DNA of 64,000 nt, from assembly GCA_964543815.1 (NCBI GenBank), contig CAZIZG010000005.1, forward strand, positions 9,424 through 73,423, read 5' to 3'. The notes under the pieces are model-generated. The model ran no database searches. It was not told the DNA's origin and saw only the letters and a program-made list of their open reading frames with translations. Below, piece after piece: positions 6,909-49,491 of the stretch. Every line of letters starts with the position of its first letter. The stretch's first letter is position 1. Both the position numbers and the translations under genes were made by a program. This stretch comes from an uncultured Bdellovibrionales bacterium (lineage in GTDB: Bacteria; Patescibacteriota; Minisyncoccia; Moranbacterales; UBA1568).

Positions 6909-6955
6909 AAAGGGTCACTACCATTGGCCGTGACCCTTCTTCATTTTATTTTTGA
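6909..6955. terminator. Bidirectional rho-independent terminator between convergent genes
   Basis: AAAGGGTCAC / GTGACCCTT stem with 11-nt loop; T-run follows on the plus strand and an A-run precedes it (T-run on the minus strand). Confidence 0.55.
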
Positions 6956-9060
6956 TACATCTTGCGGATATCATCAATCGAGAGAGTGGCGCTCTCGGGT
7001 ATATCATTGAGGGTATCGGCGCTCTCCGCTCTATAGGTGGTGATGCGATTCTTTTTCATTTTTTTCGCTTTACTTTCGGGAATCTCTCGTCCGGTTTTTT
7101 TGTCGATGTAGATGGTTTTGCTACTCATCGAATCAAGAGGGCTCGCCAGATGCTTGTCGGACTCTTCTTTGTAGGCGGTAAAGCCGGTTTCGGGATATTG
7201 CTTCAGGGCGGTATTCATGAAATCACGCCAGATGGGAGCGGCAACGAAGATGCCATCAGCTCCGGCATGCATCGGGTGATTATTATTGTTGCCAGCCCAG
7301 ACGGCGACGGCGATGGATGGGGTGTAACCAACGGTCCAGGCGTCGCGGAAATTTTGCGTGGTACCAGTCTTGGCAGCAACTTGTACGCCAGCTGGAAAAG
7401 CGAGCGGACTCTTTGGTCCAAAGATGGGCGTGCGGGCGGCATTGTCCGAGAGGATGGAGCTAATTTTTCTGGCTACTTCTGGATCAAGGACCTGCTTCGA
7501 TTCTAGGAGTTCACGTTTTGCAACTTCGTGACCGTTTCGATCGATGAGGCGGGTGATGGTGGTAGTGGGATGGTTTTTTCCTTCTTGTCCAAAGACGGAA
7601 AAGGCGTTGGCCATATCAAGCGGTCGGACCTCAGCGCCGCCCAAGACGAGTGAAAGGCCATAACGTTTGGGTTCGGTGAGGGTGGTGATACCGAGGTCGG
7701 TTGCGAGTTTGATAGTATCCGCGACACCAGCCAGGGCGAGCGTTTGGACAGCTGGAATATTGAGAGATTGGGCGAGTGCCTGGCGCATGGTCAAGCGTCC
7801 ATGAAATTTTCCGTCGTAGTTTTGGGGGATATAGTCACGACCAGAACCATCGGGACCGAAGTTGGTGAGGGTATCAATGAGAGGTGTTTCTGGTTGAAAG
7901 CCCTTGGTAAAGGCTGTGGCGTAGGCAAATGGTTTGAAGGCAGATCCTGGTTGACGTTTTTCCAACGTAACATTGACATTGCCGTCGATACTTTGGTCAA
8001 AGTAGTCACGCGAACCAACCATGGCAAGAACATCGCCGTTTTTGGCATCGATGGCCACGAGGGCAGCATTACTGGCTCCATGGCTTAGGTTACGCTTCCC
8101 ACCTTCTTGCACGGCTTGTTCAGCGGCTCTCTGAAGATTGAGATCAAGGGTGGTGATGATATGAAGCCCTTTGGTCTGCAGTTCAGATTCGGAATACTGT
8201 TTCTTTAGTTCATCAATGACTGCAAAGACAAAATGGGGGGCGATAATGGAGGTTGTTCTGGGAATAATTTTGGCAAGAGTATCGCCTTCTTCAGCGGTAT
8301 GCCAGTCGTTTCGTGAAATGAAGCCGAGGGTATACATGCGTTCAAGGATATTTTGTTGCCTGGCTCTCAATTCCTCCTGATTGATGCTATAGGGTGAGAA
8401 ATACGTAGGAGCATTGGGAAGAGCAGCGAGCAGCGCACTTTCATCGAGGGAGAGTTCCTTGGCTGATTTCTGAAAAAACATGTGAGCAGCGGATTCGATG
8501 CCATAGGTGTTAGTGCCATAGGGAACCGTATTGAGATACAAATCAAGTACCTCATCCTTGTGAAGTGTGGCATCAATCTTGATAGCGAGAAGCGCTTCGC
8601 GCACTTTACGTTCGAGGGTACGTTCGTTATTTAGGAACAATGCGCGAGCGAGCTGCTGAGTGATAGTGGAGCCACCCTGTTCAATACGGCCACTCATGAC
8701 ATTGGCTCGAAGAGCGCGCAGAATAGAGAGAGGGTCGATGCCATGATGGGTGTAGAAACTAGCATCCTCGGAGGCGATAGTGGCGAGACGGACGGATTCT
8801 GGGATAGCGTCATGGTCCACCAGGATACGGTTTTCCTCGTCGTAGAGTCGATAGAGCTCGGTTTGTCCAGTCCGGTCGTAGAGGATAGTCGGGAGATGGA
8901 AGGGAAAGTTCCGAATCTGACTGATATCCGGTGTTCCGTAACGATAAATAAGGAAGAGGCCGATGATAATGCCGAGTATGGCGAGTAAGGCAAAAAAGAC
9001 CACTTCGGAAAGAATGGTCAGAAGTGGGCTTTTGAACTTAAAATGAGAGAGATTGAACAT
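6946..9060 (-). CDS. Class A penicillin-binding protein (bifunctional transglycosylase/transpeptidase, PBP1A-type)
   Basis: 704 aa with an N-terminal TM anchor, GT51 motifs (EDASFYTHHGID, GGSTITQQLAR) and transpeptidase motifs SAFKPF, SLN, KTGTT. Confidence 0.9.
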   Translation of the reverse strand: MFNLSHFKFKSPLLTILSEVVFFALLAILGIIIGLFLIYRYGTPDISQIRNFPFHLPTILYDRTGQTELYRLYDEENRILVDHDAIPESVRLATIASEDASFYTHHGIDPLSILRALRANVMSGRIEQGGSTITQQLARALFLNNERTLERKVREALLAIKIDATLHKDEVLDLYLNTVPYGTNTYGIESAAHMFFQKSAKELSLDESALLAALPNAPTYFSPYSINQEELRARQQNILERMYTLGFISRNDWHTAEEGDTLAKIIPRTTSIIAPHFVFAVIDELKKQYSESELQTKGLHIITTLDLNLQRAAEQAVQEGGKRNLSHGASNAALVAIDAKNGDVLAMVGSRDYFDQSIDGNVNVTLEKRQPGSAFKPFAYATAFTKGFQPETPLIDTLTNFGPDGSGRDYIPQNYDGKFHGRLTMRQALAQSLNIPAVQTLALAGVADTIKLATDLGITTLTEPKRYGLSLVLGGAEVRPLDMANAFSVFGQEGKNHPTTTITRLIDRNGHEVAKRELLESKQVLDPEVARKISSILSDNAARTPIFGPKSPLAFPAGVQVAAKTGTTQNFRDAWTVGYTPSIAVAVWAGNNNNHPMHAGADGIFVAAPIWRDFMNTALKQYPETGFTAYKEESDKHLASPLDSMSSKTIYIDKKTGREIPESKAKKMKKNRITTYRAESADTLNDIPESATLSIDDIRKMYQK

Positions 9061-11939: not shown

Positions 11940-12615
11940 TTGTCTTTGACACTGAGAATTTTGAACCACAAATTCCTTCTCGTTATTGCTCTCATAATCT
12001 TCCTTGTGATGGGAGGTCTAGTTTTGCTATGGCAAAAAAAACAGAGTACTGAAACTCCTGAGGTTAAAAAGACTGAGGAACAGCAGTCGGAGCCTACCCT
12101 CACAGAAAAGTACCCGCAACATATCGAGGCTATCCAGGGGAGTGATGAAGTCTGGTATAACATTCCAGAACTCGGTGTGCGGATGAGGCTGAATAGGGGA
12201 TTCGCTGAAGATTTGGTGTATGTTTATTCAAAGTCAGAGGTGAGGGCAACCGAGGATCAAAAAAATACGTTATTCCGTTTGAGGAGAGAGTCGATTTTTC
12301 CACATATTCACTTCAGAAGATTGAACCAGCTTGTGTTCCTGGTACTCGATCGATTGGCGAAATTATCAGAGAGCCCGGAAATATTAAGGACTGGCCGGCA
12401 GCAGATTATTATAATCTCTATCGTCAGTTTCCGAATACTTTTCTTGTATTTGGGATTCCAGCTAGTCAAGACAATCCCAATACTCCCTTGTGCTTGTTAG
12501 GTGCCGACAGTAAATGGTCTTCATCTCAAATTTCAAATGATGAGATACAAAAGAGGGAGGAGCTAATGGATAGACAATCATCAGTTTTGGCGAAGTCCTT
12601 TTCTTTGATGGAGGA
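11940..12615 (+). pseudogene. Membrane-anchored hypothetical protein gene interrupted by a -1 frame change at an A7 run (12259-12265); either a homopolymer indel or a slippery site.
   Basis: The N-terminal frame (TTG/ATG start, TM helix) runs into a nonsense-like tail. A coherent about 115-aa continuation (VIPFEERVDFSTYSLQKIEPACVPGTRSIGEII...SVLAKSFSLMEEVR) lies in the -1 frame and ends at TAA 12613-12615. Confidence 0.5.
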
Positions 12616-12741: not shown

Positions 12742-14430
12742 ATGAAACAACAGGTCAAGATTCGTTATCAGTTCGCTCTCGTGCTCCTTTTGGGGCTTGT
12801 GTGCGGCGTTATTTCTTATCCTCAGGTGGTGAAGCACATCCCGCCTGTTTTCACCGTGTTTGATGCTCTCAAAGTGAACAAGGGTCTCGATTTGCAGGGG
12901 GGTATTCATTTGGAATACAAAGCGGATGTTTCGCAGATTGAGAGTGCCAAGGTGAATGATGCTCTGACCGCTGCTGAGGCAGTGATTGAGCGCCGCGTCA
13001 ATGCCTTTGGTGTTGGAGAGCCACTAGTACAACTGTCTCGTTCCGGGAGTGAACATCGCATCATCGTTGAATTACCAGGAATCAAAGATATCGAGCAGGC
13101 AAAAAAGATGATTAAAGAGACGCCGTTTTTGGAGTTTCGTGAATCCTCTGATGGTACGGTGAGTCCTGAGGATCAAAGCCAGCTTGATAGTATGAATCAA
13201 TCAAACAAGGCCAAGGCCGAAGGAATATTGGCCCGGGTTAAAAACGGCGAAGATTTCTCGGCATTGGCGAGTGAATTCAGTCAAGATCCTGGCTCGAAAG
13301 ACAAGGGTGGCGATCTTGATTTTGTGAAGAGTGGTACGTTTGTACCTGAGTTCGATCAAACGCTTTTTGATACAAATTTGCCATCTGGGGCAGTCTCTCC
13401 TCATCTGGTGGAGAGTCAGTTTGGTTGGCACATCATCAAAAAAATTGAAGAGCGTGGGTCAGGCGATGAGCGCGAAGTTCACGGTGCTCACATTCTCTTC
13501 CGGAAGTATGCCGCTACTGATTTCCCGAAGCTTGCCTTTAAGGCCACCGGTCTTTCTGGTAAGAATTTGAAAAATGCCTATGTTGACTACCAAAGTCAGG
13601 GAGTAGGGTCGCCGCAGATTGCGCTCCAGTTCGATGATGAGGGCACCAGGTTGTTTGCGGAAATTACCAAGCGAAACATTGGCAAGCCGGTAGCGATTTT
13701 CCTTGATGACGAAATCATTAGTCAGCCGACGGTCCAAAATGAAATCGTGGCTGGTCAGGCGGTTATCACGGGAAACTTTACCATGAAAGAAGCCAATGAT
13801 TTGGTGAAACGTCTCAATGAAGGAGCGCTTCCGGTACCGATTACCCTCGTGGGTCAACAGAGTGTGGATGCTTCTCTTGGTGAGAGCGCCTTGCAGAAGA
13901 GTCTCTTTGCTGGTCTGGTTGGTCTCGCGGCAGTGGCAGTTTTCATGGTCTTCTACTACCGTCTTCTTGGAGTGGTGGCGGTGTTTGCTCTTCTTCTTTA
14001 TACGGCAATGCTTCTTACCCTCTTTAAGCTTTCCGTTTTTACACCTTTTGCTATTACCGTGACGCTCTCGGGTATCGCTGGTTTCATCCTTTCGATTGGT
14101 ATCGCGGTTGATGCGAACGTTCTCATCTTTGAACGTACACGAGAAGAACTTTCTTATGGTAAGGGAGTGATTCGTTCTATTACAGAAGGATTTCGCCGCG
14201 CTTGGCCGAGTATTCGTGATGGCCACGTCTCTACCCTCATCACCACAGTCATCCTTATTGGACTCGGGACAGGATTTGTCAAAGGATTTGCAGTGATACT
14301 GGCTCTTGGTGTGCTTCTCTCGCTCTTTACCGCAGTGGTTTTGGTTCGTATCACGACGACATTCCTCGCTGGCGATTGGATGGAACGTCATGCCTGGCTT
14401 CTCGTCTCTCCTAAGAAACCACTCGAATAG
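12742..14430 (+). CDS. secD: Protein translocase subunit SecD with an embedded PpiC/parvulin-type peptidyl-prolyl isomerase domain
   Basis: Canonical SecD N-terminus and P1 motifs (LDLQGGIHL, RRVNAFGVGEPLVQ, VELPGIKD) and six C-terminal TMs. A parvulin signature (KDKGGDLDFVKSGTFVPEFDQTLF...SQFGWHIIKK) sits inside the periplasmic P1 domain. Confidence 0.9.
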   Translation: MKQQVKIRYQFALVLLLGLVCGVISYPQVVKHIPPVFTVFDALKVNKGLDLQGGIHLEYKADVSQIESAKVNDALTAAEAVIERRVNAFGVGEPLVQLSRSGSEHRIIVELPGIKDIEQAKKMIKETPFLEFRESSDGTVSPEDQSQLDSMNQSNKAKAEGILARVKNGEDFSALASEFSQDPGSKDKGGDLDFVKSGTFVPEFDQTLFDTNLPSGAVSPHLVESQFGWHIIKKIEERGSGDEREVHGAHILFRKYAATDFPKLAFKATGLSGKNLKNAYVDYQSQGVGSPQIALQFDDEGTRLFAEITKRNIGKPVAIFLDDEIISQPTVQNEIVAGQAVITGNFTMKEANDLVKRLNEGALPVPITLVGQQSVDASLGESALQKSLFAGLVGLAAVAVFMVFYYRLLGVVAVFALLLYTAMLLTLFKLSVFTPFAITVTLSGIAGFILSIGIAVDANVLIFERTREELSYGKGVIRSITEGFRRAWPSIRDGHVSTLITTVILIGLGTGFVKGFAVILALGVLLSLFTAVVLVRITTTFLAGDWMERHAWLLVSPKKPLE

Positions 14431-14447
14431 TTTCTCTCGATATACTT

Positions 14448-15344
14448 ATGCTCAAAATCATTCAGAAAAGAAAATACGCCTATATCCTCTCCGGCCTACT
14501 GACGCTCGCGAGTGTAGCAGTATTAATCGTCTGGGGTTTGAAGCCGGGAATTGATTTCAAAGGTGGGACGCTCATGGAGGTTCAGTTTTCGGTAGAGCCC
14601 GTGCCGACGGTACAGACGATTGAATCAACGCTGGCTGATTTGTCTCTCAAGAGTCTGACGGTGCAGCCGACGGAAAATCGCGGTATGCTCCTTCGTTATC
14701 TCGCTTCTGATGAAGTTGCCAATAATCAGGTGCTTGCCAAGCTGACGAGTCTCGATACCGATATTAAACAGCTTCGGACAGACTTTATCGGTGGTTCTGT
14801 TTCAGACCAAATCAAACGCAATGCCTTTACGGGTGTTATTCTTTCGATTATCGGTATCGCACTCTATATCGCCTGGGCCTTCCGGCGGGTATCGGGTGTT
14901 GTTACATCCTGGGAATACGGTCTCGGAGCGGTCATTGCGCTGGCTCATGATATCATCATCGTGATCGGTATCTTCGTACTTCTTGGTCACTACTATGATA
15001 TCGAGATTGGTATCCCTTTCATCGCAGCACTGCTGACTATCTTGGGGTACTCGGTCAATGACACCATCGTTGTATACGATCGGGTACGGGAGAACCTCAT
15101 GCGTTCCAGTCGCAAGGAAGATTTTGAAAATATCGTCAATCGTTCGCTCAACGAGACGCTGGGACGCTCTATCAACACCTCGATGACGGTTATCATTACG
15201 CTTGTGGCCATTGTGCTATTCGGTGGCGAGAGCATCAAATATTTCGGTGTAGCACTCCTTTCTGGTGTGGTGTTTGGTACGTACTCGTCCATTTATATTG
15301 CCTCGGCCCTCTTGGTATCACGCTATAAGATGAAGACTGAATAA
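14448..15344 (+). CDS. secF: Protein translocase subunit SecF
   Basis: 298 aa with SecF topology and motifs (IDFKGGT, six TMs), immediately downstream of secD. Confidence 0.9.
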   Translation: MLKIIQKRKYAYILSGLLTLASVAVLIVWGLKPGIDFKGGTLMEVQFSVEPVPTVQTIESTLADLSLKSLTVQPTENRGMLLRYLASDEVANNQVLAKLTSLDTDIKQLRTDFIGGSVSDQIKRNAFTGVILSIIGIALYIAWAFRRVSGVVTSWEYGLGAVIALAHDIIIVIGIFVLLGHYYDIEIGIPFIAALLTILGYSVNDTIVVYDRVRENLMRSSRKEDFENIVNRSLNETLGRSINTSMTVIITLVAIVLFGGESIKYFGVALLSGVVFGTYSSIYIASALLVSRYKMKTE

Positions 15345-15354
15345 TGACAAAACT

Positions 15355-15648
15355 ATGAAATGGAATCCATTCAAAAAAGATGATGCGGCAGAGAAAAATG
15401 ATGAGCTCCCTCATATCCCAGGTATGCCGGACATGAAGGATATGAATATGCTCCAGCGTTTCGCTATGAAGCGCCTCATGAATATGAGCCCGGCCGAACG
15501 CGAAAAAACTCTCCGGAAGGCCATGACGCCTAAAAATATTGAGAAGCACAAGGATGAAATCCTGGCCTCACTTGAAGCGATGCGCAAAGCGGGACAAATG
15601 TCTGATGATCAATACCGTCTCGCCAAGGCCCGGTTTGGACTCAAGTAG
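15355..15648 (+). CDS. Hypothetical small Met/Lys-rich protein
   Basis: 97-aa ORF tightly packed between secF and tyrS; no recognisable motifs. Confidence 0.4.
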   Translation: MKWNPFKKDDAAEKNDELPHIPGMPDMKDMNMLQRFAMKRLMNMSPAEREKTLRKAMTPKNIEKHKDEILASLEAMRKAGQMSDDQYRLAKARFGLK

Positions 15649-15667
15649 ATTCTTTTTCTATATATCT

Positions 15668-16858
15668 ATGGAAAACAAAGAACAACTCATCGATGAAATT
15701 CTCTCTCGGGGAGTGGCTGAAGTGATTGACCGTGATCATTTGAGGCAACGCCTCCTTGAGGGGAAACCACTTCGTATCAAACTCGGTATCGATCCAACCA
15801 GTCCCAATATTCATATTGGACGAGCCGTGGTACTTCTCAAGATGCGGGACTTGCAGCGATTGGGGCATAAGATTGTCCTTATCGTCGGTGATTTTACGGG
15901 GGTGATTGGTGATACGTCTGACAAGGAGAGTGAGCGGCCGATGCTCACCACCGATGCTATCGAGGCCAACATGAAAAACTATACTGAGCAAATGGGCAAG
16001 CTCATTGATTTAGAGCAGGCTGAGGTGCACTACAATTCTACCTGGCTTGAGAAACTTGGCTATGAGGAGATTGGGACGCAGGCTAATGTTTTTTCTTTGG
16101 CCGAATTTATTTCCCGGGAGAACATTCGCAAGCGGCTTGATGAAGGGAAGCGGGTGTCGCTCCGAGAGGTGCTCTATCCACTCATGCAGGGGTTTGACAG
16201 TATCGCGATTAACGCTGATGTAGAGCTCGGGGGTAGCGATCAACGCTTCAACCTGCTCGCTGGTCGGCGTCTTCAAGAGGCCAATGGGCAACCAGCGCAG
16301 GATATTCTCATGACCAATCTCATCCTCGGGACGGATGGTCGCAAGATGAGTTCGAGCTGGGGCAACACTATCAACTTAACCGATGTGCCCAATGAGATGT
16401 TTGGCAAGGTGATGAGTGTGCCAGATAATCTAATAACAGAGTATTTCGTGCACTGCACTCGGGTACCAATGGCTGAGATTGGAAAGATGGCTGAGGATAT
16501 GGTGACCGGTGGCAACCCGCGTGATGCCAAAGTACGTTTGGCTAAGGAAATGGTCCGTCTCTATCATGGTGACGTCGAAGCAGACAAGGCGGAACAGTAT
16601 TTTATTGATACCTTTTCAAAGGGGGCTGTACCAGAAGAGGTGCGGACAGTGTCGGTCGTTTCTGGTACAAAATTGATAGACATGCTTGCTGAGGCGGGGT
16701 TGGCGGAAAGTAAGGCTGATGCTCGTCGCAAGGCAGAGCAGGGCGGTGTTTCAATTGATGGTGACAAGCTTGCTTTTGATACTATCCTTGAAAAGGAAAA
16801 ATTTGATGGCAAAGTGCTGAAGGTCGGAAAAAAAGATTTTGTTAAGATTGTTTTTTAG
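15668..16858 (+). CDS. tyrS: Tyrosine--tRNA ligase
   Basis: Class I HIGH-like PNIHIGR, KMSSS (KMSKS), TyrRS-specific IVGDFTGVIGDTSDKESER and a C-terminal S4-like RNA-binding domain. Start at ATG 15668 (MENKEQL) rather than the ORF-track start. Confidence 0.85.
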   Translation: MENKEQLIDEILSRGVAEVIDRDHLRQRLLEGKPLRIKLGIDPTSPNIHIGRAVVLLKMRDLQRLGHKIVLIVGDFTGVIGDTSDKESERPMLTTDAIEANMKNYTEQMGKLIDLEQAEVHYNSTWLEKLGYEEIGTQANVFSLAEFISRENIRKRLDEGKRVSLREVLYPLMQGFDSIAINADVELGGSDQRFNLLAGRRLQEANGQPAQDILMTNLILGTDGRKMSSSWGNTINLTDVPNEMFGKVMSVPDNLITEYFVHCTRVPMAEIGKMAEDMVTGGNPRDAKVRLAKEMVRLYHGDVEADKAEQYFIDTFSKGAVPEEVRTVSVVSGTKLIDMLAEAGLAESKADARRKAEQGGVSIDGDKLAFDTILEKEKFDGKVLKVGKKDFVKIVF

Positions 16859-25064: not shown

Positions 25065-26438
25065 ATGGGGCTGCGGGATAAAAAAAGGAAATCGATATCG
25101 TCAGTTTTGTTGGCGAGCTTGTCTTTTGTGATGTTGGCTGGAGCAGCTTTGTTTGTCACCGCTCATACGCAGTCTTGGGTGCCGGTTTCATTGGCTAAAG
25201 GGGATGACAACGGGGATGATGGTGATGACGACGGAGGCGATGATGGTGATAGCAAGGATGATAAAGAGAAGGAGAGCGAAAAAAAGAAATCAGAGGCTGA
25301 CAAGAAAGCCAAAGAGGAGGCAAAGAAGAAGGCTGAACGAGAGTCTGAAGCTGCCAAAAAGTCGGCTGAACAAATGCGGAAGTCTTCAGGAAGTGGAAAC
25401 GAGGCGGAAAACGAATCTGACGATATCAATGATGATCATGGTATCGAGGTTGAGGATGAGGACGAGAATGAGAGTGGCGATGATAACGGAATGTTTAAGG
25501 ATCGCACCAAGACTCTTTCTAAACTTGATGAAGAGTTAGCGAAAGCTGAAAAGGAAATTCTTGAGAAGCAGGCCGAGGGTGTTGATGTAACAGCCGCTCT
25601 TGCTCGATTGGCTGAGGCCAAGGCGAAAGCTGGTACAGTCGGCGCTGCTTTTGACGCCAATGACTTGGCAGCAGTGAAGGATCTTGGCCAAGAAGTGAAG
25701 AAACTTGCTCATTTTGCCAGTCACGACGATCTTCATGATGCCAAAAAGGTCGCGGAGAATGTAGCGCGTGTAGCGAAGCGCATCGCTCAAACAACCGGAA
25801 AAATATCGCTTCTTGAAGCGGTCGGAGGTGATGGTTCAGCATTTAAGGCTTCCTTGGCAACGCTCGAGACGGAATACGCCGGGCTCAAAGAAACCGTCAC
25901 AGCCGGGAGTTATGATGTGGTAGCTATGGAAGCTTCACTTCGTACCCTTGAGCGCAAGGTGAAGGCTGTTAAGAGTAGTGTTGAAGCCGCTATCTATGCC
26001 CTGGGTGGTACTGATAGTAAATACGATGATGATTATGAGGATGAGTCTCATGACGTGGCGGAGCATTTAAATGATGTGGCGGAGATCGAGGATGATCATG
26101 TCGGCTTGGTTATCCATGGCATTGCCGAGGATCACAAGAGTTCTGCCAAAAAGGTTGGAGAGGTGGTTACTAAGATTGACAATCGTAACCCGGTACTGCA
26201 GACACTTCTTGGTTCGAGCAGTAGTGATTTGAACGAGCTTGAGCAGGAGATTGCTGCTAATAAGTCACGGGTTGAGATGTTGACTCAGGCAGCGAACTCC
26301 GTGTCAGACCCGGATGTTCAGACAATGCTGTTTGACCAGATAGAGACCCTCAAAGAACAGACTGCCAAGCTCGAAACATTTGTAGAAGGTCAGCGTGACC
26401 GCCTCAGCGTCCTTGGTTGGTTCTTTAAGTTGTTCTAA
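25065..26438 (+). CDS. Hypothetical membrane-anchored, highly charged (D/E/K-rich) coiled-coil surface protein
   Basis: 457 aa with an N-terminal hydrophobic anchor, a poly-acidic DDNGDDGDDDGGDDGD tract, a KE-rich low-complexity region and alpha-helical heptad-like repeats. Confidence 0.5.
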   Translation: MGLRDKKRKSISSVLLASLSFVMLAGAALFVTAHTQSWVPVSLAKGDDNGDDGDDDGGDDGDSKDDKEKESEKKKSEADKKAKEEAKKKAERESEAAKKSAEQMRKSSGSGNEAENESDDINDDHGIEVEDEDENESGDDNGMFKDRTKTLSKLDEELAKAEKEILEKQAEGVDVTAALARLAEAKAKAGTVGAAFDANDLAAVKDLGQEVKKLAHFASHDDLHDAKKVAENVARVAKRIAQTTGKISLLEAVGGDGSAFKASLATLETEYAGLKETVTAGSYDVVAMEASLRTLERKVKAVKSSVEAAIYALGGTDSKYDDDYEDESHDVAEHLNDVAEIEDDHVGLVIHGIAEDHKSSAKKVGEVVTKIDNRNPVLQTLLGSSSSDLNELEQEIAANKSRVEMLTQAANSVSDPDVQTMLFDQIETLKEQTAKLETFVEGQRDRLSVLGWFFKLF

Positions 26439-26452
26439 AGGAAGTCTGCTAA

Positions 26453-26486
26453 AAAAGAAAAGAGAGCTCGAGCTCTCTTTTCTTTT
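26453..26486. terminator. 34-bp perfect palindrome (AAAAGAAAAGAGAGCTCGAGCTCTCTTTTCTTTT), probable bidirectional terminator
   Basis: Perfect 15-bp arms around a CTCGAG centre with T-run/A-run arms; lies 15 nt after the stop of the upstream gene. Confidence 0.55.
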
Positions 26487-26551
26487 CGTACAGTCGTTTT
26501 CATGGTAAAATTTGTTTACATTGAAGTGGTAACCCGCCATTTTTTGTTTCT

Positions 26552-26977
26552 ATGGATAGAAAATCAGAGCTGATATCTTGGATATTTTTTGTGGTATCAG
26601 CTTTCGTAATTGTGACTCTTTTTTCAAAATTTTATATATTAAGAGATTATACTTTGCGAAGTGAGGTTGCGTGTAATCCCCAATCGGAAGTTTGTTTTAT
26701 TCGGTCTTGCTCTGAAGACTGTGAGGAAGAAGCTAGCCCCGAATATTATAAGATTCGAATGATTCATGCTAGTGATGTGCCGTTATGTGATCCACATGTG
26801 GAGGAGTGCGCTCAAATCGATTGTAAGTCAGTGATTTCATGTGAAGAGCAATATTGCACTGAAGAATCTGTTCCGGAAGGCGAATCTTGTAGCGCAATTG
26901 AAAACTTTTTGATTGAGGAATCAGAGGGTGATACGGAGGAAGTGATGGAAATAAATGATAATCCCGAAGAAGAATAG
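26552..26977 (+). CDS. Hypothetical Cys-rich small membrane protein with an acidic C-terminal tail
   Basis: 141 aa with an N-terminal TM helix, 15 cysteines in the extracytoplasmic part and a C-terminal EESEGDTEEVMEINDNPEEE; the stop lies 4 nt before the next start. Confidence 0.5.
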   Translation: MDRKSELISWIFFVVSAFVIVTLFSKFYILRDYTLRSEVACNPQSEVCFIRSCSEDCEEEASPEYYKIRMIHASDVPLCDPHVEECAQIDCKSVISCEEQYCTEESVPEGESCSAIENFLIEESEGDTEEVMEINDNPEEE

Positions 26978-26981
26978 TGTT

Positions 26982-28277
26982 ATGAGGGTGTTGTTTATTT
27001 CTGAAGAATTAGGAGCTGCTGAACTGGCTCTAAAGCTTAAGAGTGAAGGAAATGATGTTAAGCTTTATATCCACCTTGATGAGTTGAGGGATTGTTTGAA
27101 TGGTCTAATCGAAAAGACTGATCACTGGAAAAATGAGCTAAATTGGGTTGGGAAGGATGGACTTATTGTTTTTGATGATGTTGGCTATGGTATTGAACAA
27201 GATCAATTACGAAAAGATGGTTATAGAGTGGTTGGTGGTAGTGCGGCTGGCGATAGAATAGAAGAAGACAGGGAATATGGCCAGACTATTCTTCGTCAGT
27301 GTGGTATTCAGACCCTTCCTTGTCATAATTTTGAAAATGCGGATGAAGCCATCGTTTTCGTCAAAGACCACATGAATGATTTGTGGGTTGTGAAGAAGAA
27401 TGGTGGTCATATTAGTCACTATTGCTATGTTCCTGATGATAAGAGTGCTAATCGTGACACGATTGGTTTACTTGAACGATACTCTGCACTTGGCTTCAAA
27501 AATATTAATCTTCAGAAGAAAGCTCAAGGGGTTGAAATTGGTATTGGTAGGTATTTCAATGGAAATGATTGGGTCGGGCCAATTGAAATAAATATCGAGC
27601 ACAAAGGGCTGTTTCCTGGTGATGTTGGTCCGAAAACGCCTGAGATGGGGACATTAATTTGGTATGAAAAAGATGAAAATAGCCGACTCTTTATTGAAAC
27701 CCTGGGTAAGATGAAGGAATATCTTCACTCGATTGATTTTAGGGGTGATATAGACTTGAGCTGCTTTGTCTCGGAGCAGGAAATTTGGCCGTTAGAATTT
27801 ACGGCGCGTTTTGGGAATCCCGCGACTGCTTTACAGATCGAGTTGCAAAATTCTCCGTGGACCGAATTTCTCTCAGCGTTGGCTGATGGAGTCTCGTATG
27901 ATCTGGATTGCAAGGAGGGTGTTGGTGTTGTCGTGACATTGGCTGTGCCGCCTTTTCCGTACTATTTTACCCAGCCTTCCTCTGAAAGTTCGGTCGGTTT
28001 TCCCGTTGTTTTCTCAGACACATTATCACGGGAAGATATGCAGCACTATTATTTCGAAGAGATAAACAGAATTGATAGTTTTGGTTATTCAGTGGCTGGT
28101 GCCAGGGGATGTGTTATGCATGTTGGTGCAGTAGGAGAAAACATCAAAAAAGCAAGGGATTTGGTGTATGAGCGCATTGGCAAGGTTCATATTCCTAAGA
28201 TGTTCTATCGAGATGATATTGGCTTGGATTTTGAAAAGCGAGGAAGAGAATTATTGAAAAAATGGAATTGGATTTGA
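26982..28277 (+). CDS. Divergent PurD-like (phosphoribosylamine-glycine ligase family) ATP-grasp ligase
   Basis: EFTARFGNPATA aligns with PurD EFNCRFGDPETQ and the C-terminal RDDIG matches PurD; the canonical N-terminal GGREHAL and KADGLAAGKGV motifs are not conserved. Confidence 0.55.
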   Translation: MRVLFISEELGAAELALKLKSEGNDVKLYIHLDELRDCLNGLIEKTDHWKNELNWVGKDGLIVFDDVGYGIEQDQLRKDGYRVVGGSAAGDRIEEDREYGQTILRQCGIQTLPCHNFENADEAIVFVKDHMNDLWVVKKNGGHISHYCYVPDDKSANRDTIGLLERYSALGFKNINLQKKAQGVEIGIGRYFNGNDWVGPIEINIEHKGLFPGDVGPKTPEMGTLIWYEKDENSRLFIETLGKMKEYLHSIDFRGDIDLSCFVSEQEIWPLEFTARFGNPATALQIELQNSPWTEFLSALADGVSYDLDCKEGVGVVVTLAVPPFPYYFTQPSSESSVGFPVVFSDTLSREDMQHYYFEEINRIDSFGYSVAGARGCVMHVGAVGENIKKARDLVYERIGKVHIPKMFYRDDIGLDFEKRGRELLKKWNWI

Positions 28278-28298
28278 ATATTTTTTGACTAAATATTT

Positions 28299-29237
28299 AT
28301 GTTAGAAAATTGGCTTCTCGTGGCATTCATTGCGCCGATGCTGTGGTCTTTAGTCAATTTGATTGATGTGTATTTTGTGAATGATGTCTATCGGGATGAA
28401 TATGATGGAGCAATTATTTCTGGCCTTTTTCCGATATTGCCTTGGACTCTGGTATTGTTTGGAGTCGTAGCCTTTAATTTTCCAGATACTGGATGGATGT
28501 GGTTTCTCACGGGAGGGGCACTTTTTCTGTTCGCAAACTTTTTTTACTTTAAAAGTCTTTTCCGAAATAATGACGCGGCATTGGTACAGATTTTTTGGAA
28601 CTTAACCGTCCCATTTACCTTGTTGTTTTCCTGGTTTTTTTTTCAAGAGAGTCTAAATCTTAAAGAGTATATTGGTATTGCTATTGTTTTAATCGGAGTA
28701 ATATACCTTTCGCTACAGGAGAAGGGGGATGAGTGGAAAATAAAGGATGTGTTAAAAAATATTATCCCAGCTTCTGTTTTGCTTGCTTCTAGTCTCGTTT
28801 GCACGAACTATGCCTATGAATCATCAGAGGTGCATTTTTTTGATGGGTATCTGGTGTTCGCCTCTGGTATGGTTCTAGGTGCTCTCGCACTTAATCTTTT
28901 TGATAAAACAAGTCTTAAAAATCGCTTTTCTCAAATTACCGTACTGACTAAGAAATATTTTCTGGTATTTTTTGCAGCTGAGCTTTTGGCTCTTGTAGGA
29001 ACAATCACCTCTCAAAGGGCTCTAGATCTTAGTCCTTCAGCGTCCTTTGTTGCCACTATTGAAAGCCTAAGCCCAGTTTTCGTTATGTTTTTCAGTCTCG
29101 TTATTGTGGTTTTGGGAAGAACATTGATTCGTGATTTTTCTGTGAGTGAATCTTTATACAACGCCCAATTTAGAGCTTTGAAAAAAAAATTTTTTGCAGT
29201 CACTACTATTGCTATTGGGATTTTTCTAGTGAGCTAG
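28299..29237 (+). CDS. DMT-superfamily (EamA-like) transporter
   Basis: 312 aa, about 10 TMs in two internal repeats, each ending in EamA-like IGIAIVLIGVIYLS / IAIGIFLVS motifs. Confidence 0.6.
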   Translation: MLENWLLVAFIAPMLWSLVNLIDVYFVNDVYRDEYDGAIISGLFPILPWTLVLFGVVAFNFPDTGWMWFLTGGALFLFANFFYFKSLFRNNDAALVQIFWNLTVPFTLLFSWFFFQESLNLKEYIGIAIVLIGVIYLSLQEKGDEWKIKDVLKNIIPASVLLASSLVCTNYAYESSEVHFFDGYLVFASGMVLGALALNLFDKTSLKNRFSQITVLTKKYFLVFFAAELLALVGTITSQRALDLSPSASFVATIESLSPVFVMFFSLVIVVLGRTLIRDFSVSESLYNAQFRALKKKFFAVTTIAIGIFLVS

Positions 29238-29296
29238 ACATTTCTCCTGTGCTACAATGTAAGCATTGTTAGGGGATTTCTATTAAAAAAGTACCT

Positions 29297-30952
29297 ATGT
29301 TTTGTACAGATATACCAAGTCCAATTGCGCTGATTTTTTCGAGTTCAACGCCCCAGTTGTTGTATTATTCTCACCTCCCCGCTGTTTTTTCAGCAGTTCT
29401 TGTTGGGTTGCTTATTTATTCAAAAAATAAGACTTTACAAGCAAAGTTGTTACTAACGTTGGTTCTATTGTTCTCGCTTTGGAATTTCATTGATCTTGTG
29501 AATTGGACAAATGTTGATAGTCGAAGGATTATGCTGACTTGGTCGATAATGAATTTTGTCGCTATTTTAATTGCAGTAACCACGCTTTATTTTTCGTACG
29601 CTTTTTTGGAAAAAAAGGATGTATCATGGAAAATAAAGTATATTGTGGCTACCCTGATTCTCCCGTACCTCATTCTTCTTCCGACATCAATGAATATTTC
29701 CGTGTTTGACCTGTCTCTTTGTGAGGCAGAGGAGGGTATACTAACTCTATATTTTTACTTCTTGCAAGGGGTATTTTTATTGTGGACGCCATCCTACTTG
29801 ATATATCGGTATATCAATACGCCAAGCCAAAAAAAAGCCGAGGTCTCATTTCTCGCTCTCGGAGTTCTATTTTTTCTTATGTTATTTTTTGGGGGAACCT
29901 TTGTAGCATCGTATAGCGGTGTTTGGGAGTATGAGCAGTATGGACTTTTCGGCATGATTTTATTCCTTGGACTGCTGACAGTGCTTGTTGTTCGTTATCA
30001 AGCCTTCAATGTTCGAATGATTGGAGCGCAGGCATTAGTGCTTGCGTTGGTGCTTTTGATTGGGTCACAGTACTTTTTTACGGTAGATGCCACTAATTTA
30101 ATTTTAATTTCAATTACTCTTCTACTCACCTTTGTTTTTGGTATCATTCTCATTCGCTCGGTCAAAGAGGAGGTGCGGAGAAAAGAAGAGTTACAGGTTT
30201 TGACCCAGGAGCTGGCGCAGGCCAATCAGGAACTTAAGCGGTTGGATGCGGCTAAGAGCGAATTTATCTCCATTGCTTCGCACCAGCTGCGGACGCCACT
30301 GACCGCTATTAAGGGCTATATTTCGCTTGTGCTTGAGGGCTCCTACGGCAAGGTAATTCCATCGGTGCAGGATGTTTTGAACAAAGTATATCTCGTCAAC
30401 AATCGTATGGGTCAACTGGTTGAGGACTTGCTGAGTATTTCTCGGATTGAATCCGGTCGGGTCCAGTATAATTTTGTTGAGGCGCAACTTGAGCCGATGG
30501 TGGCAGACATCGTGGATATGTTCGCGCTCATGGCTAAGGACAAAAAATTATCTCTCAAAATAAAGTTGCCCAAGAAGTCACTTCCAAAGTTGACGCTTGA
30601 TGTCAACAAAATGCGAGAGGTGGTTTCTAATCTTATCGATAACGCTCTCAAATATACCAAAGAGGGCGGTGTGACGGTCGAGGTAGATGAGGAGCCTGGT
30701 TTTGCGGTTGTTAGGGTGAGGGATACCGGTATTGGGGTTGACCCGAGAGATACTGATCGTCTCTTCGAAAAGTTTACTCGGAGTACAGAAACGATGAAGC
30801 TTGATGTCTCCGGAACAGGACTCGGTCTCTATGTTGGCAAAAATTTTGTTCAGGCTCATGGCGGGACACTTGCCGTCGAGTCTGAGGGAGCCGGCAAAGG
30901 GGCCTGCTTCATTATTCGGCTGCCACTGAAGTCTGCTGTTCAGAAAGGTTGA
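29297..30952 (+). CDS. Sensor histidine kinase with a large polytopic N-terminal membrane domain
   Basis: About 290 aa of TM helices, a coiled-coil linker, HisKA H-box IASHQLRTPLTAIKGY and HATPase_c N/G boxes (IDNALKYT, GTGLGLYV). Confidence 0.85.
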   Translation: MFCTDIPSPIALIFSSSTPQLLYYSHLPAVFSAVLVGLLIYSKNKTLQAKLLLTLVLLFSLWNFIDLVNWTNVDSRRIMLTWSIMNFVAILIAVTTLYFSYAFLEKKDVSWKIKYIVATLILPYLILLPTSMNISVFDLSLCEAEEGILTLYFYFLQGVFLLWTPSYLIYRYINTPSQKKAEVSFLALGVLFFLMLFFGGTFVASYSGVWEYEQYGLFGMILFLGLLTVLVVRYQAFNVRMIGAQALVLALVLLIGSQYFFTVDATNLILISITLLLTFVFGIILIRSVKEEVRRKEELQVLTQELAQANQELKRLDAAKSEFISIASHQLRTPLTAIKGYISLVLEGSYGKVIPSVQDVLNKVYLVNNRMGQLVEDLLSISRIESGRVQYNFVEAQLEPMVADIVDMFALMAKDKKLSLKIKLPKKSLPKLTLDVNKMREVVSNLIDNALKYTKEGGVTVEVDEEPGFAVVRVRDTGIGVDPRDTDRLFEKFTRSTETMKLDVSGTGLGLYVGKNFVQAHGGTLAVESEGAGKGACFIIRLPLKSAVQKG

Positions 30953-40264: not shown

Positions 40265-40338
40265 GGATGATTAGCTCAGTTGGTTAGAGCACAGCATTCA
40301 CATTGCTGGGGTCACTGGTTCGAATCCAGTATCATCCA
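40265..40338 (+). tRNA. tRNA-Val (anticodon CAC)
   Basis: Manual cloverleaf fold: acceptor GGATGAT/ATCATCC, D-arm GCTC/GAGC, anticodon stem CAGCA/TGCTG with loop TTCACAT, T-arm ACTGG/CCAGT with loop TTCGAAT, discriminator A; CCA not encoded. Confidence 0.8.
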
Positions 40339-42380: not shown

Positions 42381-42453
42381 TGGGTGCGGGGGGAATCGAA
42401 CCCTCGACCGTTGGCTTAAAAGGCCACTGCTCTACCGACTGAGCTACGCACCC
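42381..42453 (-). tRNA. tRNA-Lys (anticodon UUU)
   Basis: Manual fold of the reverse complement: acceptor GGGTGCG/CGCACCC, D-arm GCTC/GAGC, anticodon loop CTTTTAA, T-loop TTCGATT. The T-stem GAGGG/CCCCC has one A-C mismatch; CCA not encoded. Confidence 0.75.
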
Positions 42454-45635: not shown

Positions 45636-46301
45636 ATGGGAAATCAGAATCTTTTCGTGTTGCTTCGCTCGAAATTTGGTACCCTGGTCATCTGGGGATT
45701 GCTTTTCGGCGCCTTGGCATTCTTCGGTCTTCTTATGACCGAAAAGCCATTTCAGACCAAGATGGATTTCTTGGTAGTGCAGGCTAATGCGACCAATCAG
45801 GATTTCTATACCCAGTTTAAATCCTCTGAGTATCTGGGCAAGATTTTGTCTGAGGCGGTGTACAGCGATCGCTTTATTGATGCCCTTGTTGAAACTGGCA
45901 AGGTAAATAAAGAATTCCTGCCTTTTGATAAACAGCAACGCCTCGCTACTTGGAGCAAGATGGTCCAGGTTGATAAGAACCTTGAACTCGGTATCATCAG
46001 TGTGACTGTCAAAGGTGATCGTGAACGCGATGTTGCTCGAATCATGGATGGTATCGCCGAGGTACTGACGACGCGCAATTCCCTCTTCCGTGGTGGTGAT
46101 GAAAAGAGCGTGGAGATCCGAATTCTTTCCGGCCCCATTCTTGAGCAGAATCCTGGGATGGCCAAGACACTGAAAGTGGTGCTCGTTGCCTTCCTCGCTG
46201 GACTGTTTGTTTCAGCCTTTGTCATCATCGTGAAAGCTGAATCCAAAACGAAGCCAGTCATTCGTCCGGATGGTCTTCATTTGAACGATACCATAGTCTA
46301 A
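45636..46301 (+). CDS. Wzz/polysaccharide co-polymerase-like protein (paralog 2 of 3)
   Basis: 221 aa with TM helices at both ends; the periplasmic region resembles the proteins at 22446 and 60811 (QANATNQDFYTQFKSSEYLGKIL). Confidence 0.45.
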   Translation: MGNQNLFVLLRSKFGTLVIWGLLFGALAFFGLLMTEKPFQTKMDFLVVQANATNQDFYTQFKSSEYLGKILSEAVYSDRFIDALVETGKVNKEFLPFDKQQRLATWSKMVQVDKNLELGIISVTVKGDRERDVARIMDGIAEVLTTRNSLFRGGDEKSVEIRILSGPILEQNPGMAKTLKVVLVAFLAGLFVSAFVIIVKAESKTKPVIRPDGLHLNDTIV

Positions 46302-46454
46302 GTAATTCCTTGATACTTGTGGCTTTCTGGTCATAAGTATCCTGGGAAGAGAGCGGTGTAGCGTTATCGTCATCACTGCTTTCTTCCTAGGATAGATTCG
46401 AAAGTGTAGTTTAACAATCAGTCTATCAGTTTTCAACTTCAACCTGGAGGTCGT

Positions 46455-47582
46455 ATGACCATGTTTCATAAGCTTTTGCTTCTGATCGTGTACGCGGCCT
46501 TCGCTGGTTGTGCCACGAATCCGCGTTTTGCCACTGAACTGCCCGCGAGTCATATCTCGGGTCAGAAGGTGTGTGAAGTGCCACAGCATTGGGAGGCGCT
46601 GGCGCTGAAAGGCGTCAATATGAAGTCGCTTACCAAGGCGAATGTGATTCAAGTGAGGATTCCGCCACAATGGGTGGGGGATGCGCTCGGGTGGTTTGTC
46701 GAGAGCGAGGAAGCTCGTACACTCGAACACTATCCGCGTATGACATGGCAAGCGCTGGTGGTAAATCAGCGTGGCGAGAAACAGATGTTTCCCGCCGTCA
46801 TGAAGAACCCGCTCGTTTCACCGATACTGACGATCATCATTGCAGACCCGGCATTTTCGATGGGGGATGAAGTGAACGTGTATGTGCCATCGGGCGCCTA
46901 CACCAAGCTTCTGACTACCACCGGTGATATGCTGCGTCTACCGATGAGTATGGACTGCCTTGGATTGGTTGATGCCGAATTCGTTCGGTCATTTCCGTCC
47001 AAGGCTCGAGTGCTGCCGGCAGGTGAAAGTCTGCTTGCGGGTATTCGGAAGGACTTCTCTGAGCCATCACTGCAAAGCGATGGCACGGTCTATTCCATCA
47101 GTCCGTTGGCGCTCACTCCGCAAGTGGTGGGTGACCTCCGTCAGGTGACACAGGGTGAGCGTATCGCTGAACGTGGTTTGCCGATTGCCTTTCCTCCAGG
47201 ATTGGGCACGGCAATTTCGCTCACTGTTGCTCTCGCGAGCACTGGTGACGATAAGTACGTCGGACCTTTCGGGGAACGGCTGTACTCACCACCTGAGGTG
47301 AATGCTGCGCTCGCTCGATATCTGCGCGTTTACAACTCGCTTAAGAATGACCTGGAATGGCGTCTGGGGATACCTCCTTCGGATGCTGTTGCTCCTCACC
47401 TGACCTTTGACGGACGCAAGTCCGGCTGGGAAATCGGTGAAGAGATGGTCTTTCGAGTGAGGGCCATGTGGGAAGTGCTCGATCAGTTGAAAGAGCGCTT
47501 TCTGTCTCGCACCAAGGAGAAAGGTGCACCTGCAATGAAAGAAGCAACTCAGACCGGGCTGCTTCCGAGCAGCTCACCTTAA
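46455..47582 (+). CDS. Hypothetical lipoprotein (island gene 1)
   Basis: Signal peptide with lipobox-like AAFAGC; GGAGG SD 6 nt upstream; GC-rich codon usage; no catalytic motifs recognised. Confidence 0.5.
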   Translation: MTMFHKLLLLIVYAAFAGCATNPRFATELPASHISGQKVCEVPQHWEALALKGVNMKSLTKANVIQVRIPPQWVGDALGWFVESEEARTLEHYPRMTWQALVVNQRGEKQMFPAVMKNPLVSPILTIIIADPAFSMGDEVNVYVPSGAYTKLLTTTGDMLRLPMSMDCLGLVDAEFVRSFPSKARVLPAGESLLAGIRKDFSEPSLQSDGTVYSISPLALTPQVVGDLRQVTQGERIAERGLPIAFPPGLGTAISLTVALASTGDDKYVGPFGERLYSPPEVNAALARYLRVYNSLKNDLEWRLGIPPSDAVAPHLTFDGRKSGWEIGEEMVFRVRAMWEVLDQLKERFLSRTKEKGAPAMKEATQTGLLPSSSP

Positions 47583-47602
47583 ACCCTTTGGAAGGAGTTC
47601 CC

Positions 47603-49120: not shown

Positions 49121-49262
49121 TAGACACTCCTCTCTCATGTAAAGTCCGAGACAGAATAAGTCTCAAGGCGAGCCTCTCAAGGGGCCGCCTCATAAAAAGT
49201 GTACGCTCTGACGTACTGGCTCATGGAGAGTAGGAAAACAGTCGCGACATCGTTCGCACAAT

Positions 49263-49306
49263 CAGGGCAGGAAGTTCATCCGAACGACCTGCCCTTGATC
49301 TTTTTA
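49263..49306 (+). terminator. Rho-independent terminator after the LysM gene
   Basis: AGGGCAGG / CCTGCCCT stem with 16-nt loop, followed by TTGATCTTTTTATA. Confidence 0.6.
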
Positions 49307-49332
49307 TACCTCCATAAAGCCATAATTTAGAT

Positions 49333-49361
49333 ATTGACAAAACAGGGAAAAGGGTGTATAC
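49333..49361 (+). promoter_or_regulatory. Near-consensus sigma70 promoter for island gene 3
   Basis: TTGACA, 17-nt spacer, TATACT; about 125-nt structured leader before the ATG at 49492. Confidence 0.65.
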
Positions 49362-49491
49362 TGAGTCGTTCAGTGGAAATCTCGTATGAGGTATCTCCTG
49401 AACGGTTTCGAATGTGCCTGAACATCCCAACCTCGGTTGGGTCGATGTGTCAGGCACATCTCATCACCCAACCACGTGCAAGGAGCACACC

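Follow-up and report, generated by a model that had tools for sequence, protein, structure and literature searches.

A SecD subunit of Moranbacteria with an embedded and putatively circularly permuted parvulin domain

INTRODUCTION

How unfolded proteins are received when they leave the SecYEG channel is an open question in the field. It has recently been proposed that SecDF recruits parvulin chaperones through its periplasmic domains, as with SurA in Escherichia coli, and that the genome-reduced Mycoplasma builds a 'dome' of peptidyl-prolyl isomerase (PPIase) domains on SecDF. AlphaFold models put the parvulin domains of SurA on the P1 head of SecDF, and SurA binds to the holotranslocon (PMC9987972). 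The PrsA-like PPIase proteins of Mycoplasma can be cross-linked to SecD, with which they form a complex; Mpn444 is one protein for which the cross-link to SecD was reported, and substrate density contacts the Mpn444 PPIase domain (bioRxiv 10.1101/2024.09.05.611430; 10.1101/2025.04.25.650208). PpiD and YfgM sit at SecYEG (PMC8669966), and the Gram-positive lipoprotein PrsA is proposed to fold proteins at the membrane-wall interface after their translocation (PMC12445088). Here we describe a secD gene found on a 64,000-nucleotide stretch of metagenome-derived DNA (hereafter the window; contig CAZIZG010000005.1 of assembly GCA_964543815.1, positions 9,424 to 73,423), the product of which carries a predicted parvulin (PpiC-type) domain within its own P1 region, with a strand order that appears to be circularly permuted.

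RESULTS

The gene encodes a SecD subunit with intact motor motifs

The SecD-encoding open reading frame (ORF) comprises 562 amino acids (aa) plus a stop codon. It coincides exactly with the gene named in a preliminary description of the window, and all of the SecD motifs quoted there were found in the translation, namely LDLQGGIHL (aa 49-57), RRVNAFGVGEPLVQ (aa 84-97) and VELPGIKD (aa 109-116). The protein matched the NCBIfam model TIGR01129 (secD) over aa 48-537 with 374.4 bits (cut-off 244.4), and the Pfam models Sec_GG (aa 45-62), SecD_1st (aa 77-135; 65.1 bits, cut-off 27), SecDF_P1_head (aa 267-365; 106.5 bits, cut-off 27) and SecD_SecF_C (aa 372-532; 36.5 bits, cut-off 20.5). A Foldseek search with the full AlphaFold2 (AF2) model returned the SecDF structures 5xan, 5yhf, 5xap and 3aqp as best matches (E 1e-19 to 1e-23). 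All of the defining features that could be tested were found, which places the protein in the SecD family.

Assignment of secondary structure by DSSP on the AF2 model gave one N-terminal transmembrane (TM) helix (residues 3-30) and five C-terminal helices (residues 377-543), so that the six C-terminal helices previously counted have to be reduced to five. The basic residues K2, K6 and R8 stand ahead of the N-terminal helix, which, together with the homology to Thermus thermophilus SecDF, indicates that the N-terminus is inside and that P1 and the parvulin are outside the membrane; by this homology the P1 domain, and hence the insert, would be extracytoplasmic. The membrane Asp D457 (14110-14112) lies in the motif AVDANVLIFER, which aligns with AVDGNVLSFER of 3aqp, and D457, N459, E464 and R465 were invariant across 67 homologues. 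The Asp of AVDGNVLSFER is the conserved membrane Asp of the SecD proton pathway.

The downstream secF noted in the preliminary description was confirmed, the product matching TIGR00966 over SecF residues 3-290 with 278.2 bits (cut-off 160). To judge from these motifs and profiles, the gene encodes a genuine SecD subunit of the SecDF motor of a Moranbacteria bacterium with a tiny genome (Patescibacteria; candidate phyla radiation, CPR), with the motor motifs intact. Canonical SecD and SecDF proteins (T. thermophilus 3AQP, Deinococcus radiodurans 5XAN and E. coli SecD) share with it the arrangement of one plus five TM helices, the P1 domain with GG motif, SecD_1st and head, the membrane Asp and the adjacent secF. 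However, the linker of about 39 residues ahead of the P1 head, as seen in T. thermophilus SecDF, has given way here to a segment of 133 residues containing the parvulin.

A parvulin-type domain occupies the connector leading into the P1 head

The parvulin (PpiC-type) domain lies at aa ~142-256, behind the first P1 segment and ahead of the P1 head. The insert was matched by Pfam Rotamase_3 (PF13616; aa 151-237, 84.7 bits, cut-off 22.5, E 9e-24) and Pfam Rotamase (PF00639; aa 151-235, 71.0 bits, cut-off 21.7), and its parvulin signature, FSALASEFSQDPGSKDKGGDLDF...ESQFGWHIIKK, spans aa 172-234. SecD and Rotamase profiles thus both scored well above their curated cut-offs within one protein. The embedding of a parvulin in the P1 region, as proposed in the preliminary description, agrees with the Rotamase_3 match, with the fold prediction and with the homologue survey reported below.

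The site of insertion was located with head and base boundaries taken from the Pfam models and from an alignment to 3aqp. SecD residues 44-141 align with T. thermophilus SecDF 32-124 and residues 275-556 with 164-439, and the 133-residue segment stands in place of the linker formed by T. thermophilus residues 125-163. The insertion site is the connector between the 'LEFR' strand, which belongs to the first P1 segment, and the P1 head, outside the head fold. The earlier placement of the insert in the P1 head is therefore right as to the extracytoplasmic P1 region but not as to the head itself, because the insert replaces the linker leading into the head.

The full-length AF2 model had a mean predicted local distance difference test score (pLDDT) of 75, the insert being its most confident part (81-90 for residues 141-260), and it paired strands 228-238 and 245-254 as a hairpin. 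When the domain alone (residues 134-268) was modelled, the mean pLDDT was 92.1 and the predicted template modelling score (pTM) was 0.84, so that the parvulin fold, a sheet of four strands with four helices, is confidently predicted; the trailing strand (model residues 112-121) had a pLDDT of 96-98. Foldseek comparison of the insert model with the Protein Data Bank (PDB) gave the periplasmic PPIase of Bacteroides fragilis (8hm3/8hm4) as best match, with 118-124 aligned columns at a root-mean-square deviation (rmsd) of 2.1-2.7 A, and also PrsA (6xd8/6vj4) and the archaeal Pin protein CsPin (2rqs), with 77 columns at 1.0-1.9 A. By profile, predicted fold and residues, the insert belongs to the parvulin superfamily. 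The features of the gene are collected in Table 1.

Table 1. Positions of the secD and secF features within the window
Feature	Position	Strand	Basis
secD with inserted parvulin domain	12742..14430	+	ORF; TIGR01129; Foldseek of full model to SecDF structures
N-terminal TM helix, aa ~9-31	12766..12834	+	Sequence; AF2 helix 3-25 and 27-30
First P1 part (GG motif, SecD_1st), ending in 'PFLEFRE' strand	12871..13146	+	Pfam; aligns with T. thermophilus SecDF 32-124
Parvulin core, aa 142-238: long helix a1, a2-a3, strand 191-196, a4, GWHIIKK strand	13165..13455	+	Rotamase_3; domain model pLDDT 93-98; Foldseek
D182	13285-13287	+	Parvulin core
S225	13414-13416	+	Parvulin core
H230	13429-13431	+	Parvulin core, GWHIIKK strand
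Hairpin loop, aa 239-244 (GSGDER), from last core strand to relocated strand	13456..13473	+	DSSP
Predicted relocated beta1-equivalent strand, aa 245-254 (EVHGAHILFR), with H250 (13489-13491)	13474..13503	+	AF2 domain model; conservation; relatives
P1 head subdomain, aa 267-365	13540..13836	+	SecDF_P1_head; aligns with T. thermophilus SecDF from residue 164 on
Five C-terminal TM helices, aa 377-543	13870..14370	+	DSSP helices 377-406, 408-433, 442-471, 476-508, 511-543
secF partner subunit	14448..15344	+	17 nt downstream of secD; TIGR00966; Pfam SecD_SecF_C 196 bits

The first catalytic-His strand appears to have been relocated behind the last strand

The canonical parvulin order (beta1 with the first His, a1-a3, beta2, a4, beta3, and beta4 with the second His) was not found in the insert. 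Both Rotamase profile matches start late, at column 14 of 97 in PF00639 and at columns 32-115 of 116 in PF13616, which means that the N-terminal beta1 strand with the first catalytic His ('xHILv') is not found where it normally lies. Polar sequence precedes helix a1, and no beta1-like His strand is present in it; instead, IEERGSGDEREVHGAHILFRK, which contains H250, follows directly after the 'GWHIIKK' strand with H230. The parvulin signature described as unmistakable in the preliminary description is thus borne out by profile and residues, but it is not that of a standard parvulin, and the circular permutation had been missed. In an artificial 'de-permuted' sequence, in which the strand was moved before helix a1, the PF13616 match extended to column 19 with a gain of only 1.7 bits and the PF00639 match was not extended; H250 in this construct was aligned to the PF13616 column that holds the canonical His of a relative described next (locus L072). 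The scan of the de-permuted construct gives weak support to a permutation.

Comparison with close relatives was more informative. The SecD of locus L072 (metagenome-assembled genome (MAG) contig JAZDKA010000010.1) has the reverse order, with 'LEFKEEGTGNQLIHEIHAAHILIAKNGG...' ahead of helix a1 and 'GWHIIKKIEEKDVPNQAYVSTGLTGKNL' running straight into the head, and its Rotamase match is full length (model columns 1-96, 84.5 bits). When it was aligned with its nearest relatives, a His-strand segment of about 20 residues stood upstream in L072 and downstream in the others, with a nearly identical strand sequence (EIHAAHILIAK in L072 and EIHSAHILIAK in the relatives). The L072 protein was then used as the query of a permutant survey with 119 classifiable relatives. 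The result showed that 113 had the trailing strand only and six had the upstream strand only, and none (0/119) had both. The six upstream-strand forms (P0394, which is the L072 protein, P0410, P0411, P0440, P0449 and P0477) came from assemblies of NCBI, Logan, JGI and ENA. Overall, P0394 shares 74% identity with the permuted P0396; outside the insert, their Kimura distance is 0.13, which corresponds to about 87% identity, and the two differ essentially by the relocation of the strand; natural circular-permutant pairs, as read from such alignments, exist among close SecD relatives. When the SecD backbones were placed in a rough neighbour-joining tree, canonical forms occurred in four separate places, each beside permuted neighbours, and this tree, crude as it is, suggests that permuted and canonical forms have switched repeatedly, with at least four changes from permuted to canonical. 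About 217 window-like inserts had the strand downstream only, with the cases missed by the regular expression inspected by hand.

The strict pattern of one strand per core, on either side of it, indicates that functionally the trailing strand takes the place of beta1, and hence that the domain is a circularly permuted parvulin. There is accordingly strong comparative evidence, joined by the predicted fold, that the first catalytic-His strand has been relocated behind the last strand of the insert. The family profile aligns E. coli SurA residues 170-273, a stretch made up of the P1 core and the opening strand of P2 (EVHARHILLK), and tandem-parvulin SecDs occur among the relatives; on these grounds duplication followed by deletion is the likely route to the permutation. 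The loop that joins the two strands of the hairpin (aa 239-244 here) was lengthened by 10-45 residues in L018, L055, L078 and P0122, often by acidic, Asn-rich or Gly/Ser-rich sequence, so that this site, to judge from the relatives, tolerates insertions.

Active-site residues are conserved on the core and on the relocated strand

Conservation was scored in a set of 201 distinct homologues with 54-91% identity. D182 and H230 were each kept in all 201, H250 on the relocated strand in 198 of the 201, and position 225 (Ser in the present protein) was Ser or Thr throughout; L192, F200 and F204 were hydrophobic in the whole set. By motif alignment, we take the Pin1 counterparts to be C113 for D182, H157 for H230, H59 for H250, T152 for S225, and L122, M130 and F134 for L192, F200 and F204, respectively. 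The position of Pin1 C113 is Asp in many bacterial parvulins. As judged by this alignment, all of the catalytic and proline-pocket residues are retained in the insert.

The fusion recurs in several groups of the candidate phyla radiation

For a species survey, one genome per GTDB species was scanned; 130 relatives were returned and 80 were kept. All of the 80 species-representative loci (54-89% identity) had the SecD backbone and a parvulin core in a single ORF; a survey of SecD homologues had been suggested in the preliminary description. The records of these loci are mostly named Candidatus Moraniibacteriota or Moranbacteria, and some are named 'Parcubacteria group' or 'Patescibacteria group'. 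A number of the loci on CAY* and CAZ* contigs (L001, L002, L004-L008, L015, L016, L025, L033, L043, L051, L057, L060, L064, L065, L067 and L075) are third-party annotation (TPA) MAGs titled 'uncultured Bdellovibrionales bacterium'. Their SecD proteins are 55-89% identical to the Moranbacteria-type SecD and have the same parvulin insert, and the Bdellovibrionales label looks like a placeholder or a mislabel.

In a collection of 5.8 billion proteins, the best 120 homologues (71-91% identity) all had PF00639/PF13616 together with SecD domains, and the named ones were annotated only as 'protein translocase subunit SecD'. An exhaustive HMMER search with the P1 segment gave 305 clusters (50% identity) at E<=1e-30. 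Among the best 150 of the 305 cluster representatives, 89 had a parvulin core placed after SecD_1st and before the P1 head, and about 20 top matches were ordinary SecDs with a linker of only 23-50 aa at the insertion site. With a SecDF-fused query, a parvulin was present in 118 of the 120 matches listed, and the named ones were from Candidatus Peregrinibacteria, Gracilibacteria or Patescibacteria. One representative comes from Candidatus Peribacterales. The parvulin-bearing proteins include SecD-SecF fusions of 1015-1120 aa, and their inserts are of several architectures: window-like ones of about 135 aa, tandem or longer ones of about 245-265 aa with a full-length canonical Rotamase match, and ones of about 380 aa. 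In the longer inserts (P0129, P0171, P0173, P0139, P0135, P0144, P0150 and P0158), the order is core 1, His-strand, canonical core 2, trailing strand and P1 head, and the first core is degenerate, without the His ('GYEIF', 'GYYIIKL'). The second parvulin may be nested within the hairpin loop of a permuted first one, or the two may follow each other serially. Across these collections, the parvulin-in-SecD fusion appears as a lineage-wide feature of several CPR groups.

Comparison with known parvulin systems

The full-length NCBIfam models of the known parvulin foldases were far from being reached: the PrsA models NF002827, NF002846 and NF002824 gave 47.6-53.7 bits (cut-offs 343-361), matching only aa 154-238, and the SurA model NF008038 gave 47.8 bits (cut-off 394), matching only the parvulin region. 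By these models, the protein is neither PrsA nor SurA. PrsA (4WO7, 6VJ4 and 6XD8) is nevertheless alike in being an extracytoplasmic, membrane-tethered parvulin with a His/Asp/Ser-Thr/His site, and Foldseek found in it the closest canonical parvulin structures (rmsd 1.0-1.4 A over 77 columns, 40-43% identity). Unlike PrsA, the present SecD has neither a lipobox, its N-terminus being the SecD TM helix, nor an N/C chaperone domain; SecD itself serves as the tether, and the strands are permuted.

The P2 parvulin of SurA was the best sequence match of the insert among solved structures (E 1e-16), and the SurA junction 'GFHILKV..RGES...EVHARHILLK' resembles the junction between core and trailing strand seen here. 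The contact modelled between SurA parvulins and the P1 head of SecDF (PMC9987972) would be covalent in this SecD, whereas SurA is soluble, combines an N/C chaperone core with two canonical parvulins, and is proposed to associate with SecDF non-covalently in the diderm periplasm. The periplasmic PPIase of B. fragilis (8HM3/8HM4, the target of BfUbb), the best structural match with TM-scores of 0.68-0.70 and 33-35% identity, has a sequence alignment that runs through 'GFHIIQLIEKRGDRINTRHILL', that is, core, short turn and His-strand; it differs in being a soluble multi-domain protein of 427 aa.

Two further systems resemble the locus in where the parvulin is held. The dome of Mycoplasma pneumoniae (Mpn444/436/489 with SecDF-SecYEG) likewise belongs to a genome-reduced bacterium and sets PrsA-like PPIase domains over the Sec translocon, but it consists of separate lipoproteins in a trimeric dome, with canonical domain order and in a different lineage. 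PpiD/YfgM of E. coli offers a membrane-anchored, parvulin-containing protein at the periplasmic face of the translocon (PMC8669966), although PpiD has its own TM anchor, binds SecY and is not part of SecD. By analogy with these systems, the SecD insert plausibly works like PrsA or SurA.

Genes around secD and other features of the window

The neighbours of secD are a PBP1a gene (6946-9060, minus strand) and genes for a NUDIX hydrolase, an ABC-F ATPase and a small hypothetical membrane protein, as well as secF, tyrS, pheS and pheT; as annotated from their sequences, the genes around secD are housekeeping genes. Within the 64-kb window, no parvulin besides the SecD insert is encoded. Just upstream of secD, at 11940-12500 (+), an ORF of 186 aa has an N-terminal TM helix and no Pfam match; the C-terminal third of its translation resembles low-quality or non-coding sequence, and the true gene may be shorter or frameshifted. 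Between secF and tyrS, at 15355-15648 (+), a Lys/Met-rich ORF of 97 aa without a significant family overlaps the tyrS ORF in its long form with a TTG start (15539-16858), and the real tyrS start is probably further downstream.

Two regions of the window are unusual in composition. The GC content of 46000-50100 is 0.54-0.59, compared with about 0.47 elsewhere; its ORFs at 46455-47582, 47468-49120 and 49414-50103 have no Pfam match except one LysM domain, no rRNA was found there by Rfam, and the region may be a compositionally odd cluster of cell-wall-associated proteins or foreign DNA. The region 26000-30000 has a low GC content (0.38-0.42) and encodes a divergent GARS-like ATP-grasp protein, with Pfam scores barely above the cut-offs, and an EamA-family transporter, which are followed by a histidine kinase with seven TM helices. 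Only two tRNAs were found in the window (40265-40338, plus strand; 42381-42453, minus strand). GC skew was positive in every 2-kb bin, with a monotonic rise of the cumulative skew, and nearly all long ORFs are on the plus strand; from this uniform skew and strand bias, the window appears to lie wholly on one leading-strand replichore.

DISCUSSION

In the SecD described here, the short and variable linker into the mobile, preprotein-binding P1 head is replaced by a parvulin-type PPIase domain of about 115 residues, which would be placed outside the cytoplasmic membrane, beside the SecYEG exit. The permuted domain, as predicted, opens with helix a1, and the His-strand follows the last strand as a hairpin, which would bring H250 next to H230. 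We propose that the insert serves as a translocon-tethered foldase or holdase acting on chains that leave SecYEG, and from sequence, model and analogy we give this reading a probability of about 70%. The domain would bind emerging chains and isomerise their Xaa-Pro bonds while the proton-driven P1 head pulls the chains out; it may catalyse Xaa-Pro isomerisation, hold unfolded segments, or do both. It would thereby do what PrsA, SurA, PpiD or the dome proteins of Mycoplasma do in trans elsewhere, this being the role of PrsA in monoderms (PMC12445088). What the analysis shows is the architecture and its conservation, the predicted fold, the strand relocation and the conserved residues, whereas enzymatic activity, an action on translocating substrates and any coupling to head movement are inferred.

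Several points weigh against this proposal. The permutation is drawn from structure prediction and comparative sequence evidence rather than from a solved structure, and the full-length model has a pTM of 0.43, so that the placement of the parvulin relative to head, base and SecYEG is not reliably predicted. The distant relatives P0126, P0148, P0167 and P0185 keep the insert layout and have lost both histidines together (for example, GFFIVKK/KIKPLSF in P0126 and GYYIVQR/GRYIFFEK in P0167). Their paired loss fits two histidines that work as a pair, but it also points to a non-catalytic role in those distant lineages, the members of which are presumably non-catalytic descendants. Finally, PrsA's PPIase activity can be dispensed with for secretion in Bacillus subtilis (PMC12445088), which means that conserved residues do not prove catalysis to be the selected function.

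The last two points are also what speaks for the main rival to the foldase proposal, namely that the insert has a substrate-binding or structural role and no catalytic one, in the manner of the P1 domain of SurA or the PpiD parvulin. It would enlarge the preprotein-binding surface of the P1 head or serve as a holdase, and prolyl isomerisation would not be what is selected for. The parvulin domain of PpiD has been reported to be catalytically inactive, and PpiD carries additional chaperone domains. PPIase-dead mutants of PrsA still support secretion (PMC12445088), and the degeneration of the first core in the tandem forms points the same way. However, the full His-Asp-Ser/Thr-His set and the proline pocket are kept in 198-201 of the 201 homologues despite identities as low as 54%, and it would be difficult to account for a conserved His on a relocated strand if no active site were under selection. 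We therefore consider a purely non-catalytic module unlikely for the protein of the window, while noting that it is the strongest competitor of a foldase.

It is less probable still that the insert is a truncated parvulin lacking beta1, in which 'EVHGAHILF' is a linker or, as at the junction of P1 and P2 in SurA, the relic of a lost second parvulin, lies outside the fold, and no permutation has taken place. The profile alignment to SurA 170-273, in which the trailing strand is homologous to the opening strand of the next parvulin, the existence of tandem-parvulin SecDs and the gain of only 1.7 bits on PF13616 by the de-permuted construct are consistent with a relic. Nevertheless, AF2 sets the strand in the domain with the high confidence given above (domain pTM 0.84), H250 is kept almost without exception, and each of the single-core forms has the strand on exactly one side, upstream or downstream. 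An origin of the strand as a relic would, moreover, be compatible with permutation by duplication and deletion, so that it is no real alternative to a permuted domain.

An action in cis on SecD, for example isomerisation of a hinge proline of P1 that gates the swing between the F-form and the I-form, would suit an insert lying in the connector that leads into the P1 head, and the head does move during the transport cycle (PMC8669966). We hold this to be very improbable, as ordinary SecDF works without a PPIase, no conserved hinge proline was identified in this analysis, and the free parvulin chaperones reported to meet SecDF and SecYEG in trans favour a role directed at substrates. An assembly or annotation artefact, whether a frameshift or a chimeric join of a prsA-like gene and secD, was only ever an a priori possibility in metagenome-derived sequence and is ruled out, since SecD P1 segments stand on either side of the parvulin in one frame, the single ORF recurs in all of the 80 independent species-level genomes, and assemblies from NCBI, JGI, ENA and Logan contain hundreds of proteins with the fusion; what was found is thus neither of the two outcomes that the preliminary description had set against its own claim, a P1 segment without a Rotamase match or two separate genes.

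A bolder form of the translocon-tethered foldase proposal would be that CPR bacteria hard-wired an active parvulin foldase into the SecDF motor, replacing free PrsA, SurA and PpiD, that this supports a contact between SecDF heads and chaperones, and that the inserts are the first natural parvulin permutants, with repeated interconversion among orthologues whose backbones are ~87% identical. The parvulin would then ride on the connector of the swinging head, each capture-and-release stroke handing the emerging chain to the prolyl isomerase. We regard this combined claim as tentative, and on balance doubtful.

No description of a SecD-parvulin fusion or of a circularly permuted parvulin was found in the literature searched (full text, with incomplete coverage). 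Domain-architecture databases will list the Pfam combination implicitly, and the sequences are public and annotated only as SecD/SecF, so that the predicted extra enzymatic domain is invisible under the label SecD in current annotation. With permuted and canonical inserts side by side in SecD backbones that are almost the same, nature provides a rare experiment in circular permutation, and the permutant pairs may be used to study the robustness of the fold and to design insertion-tolerant PPIase modules. A conserved covalent fusion of SecD and parvulin is independent evolutionary evidence for a prolyl isomerase at the translocon exit and, if the proposal is true, the hard-wired fusion would give 'Rosetta-stone' support to the contact between SecDF heads and parvulin chaperones of ordinary bacteria. 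SecD-parvulin also provides a minimal, genetically linked system in which translocation-coupled folding can be tested.

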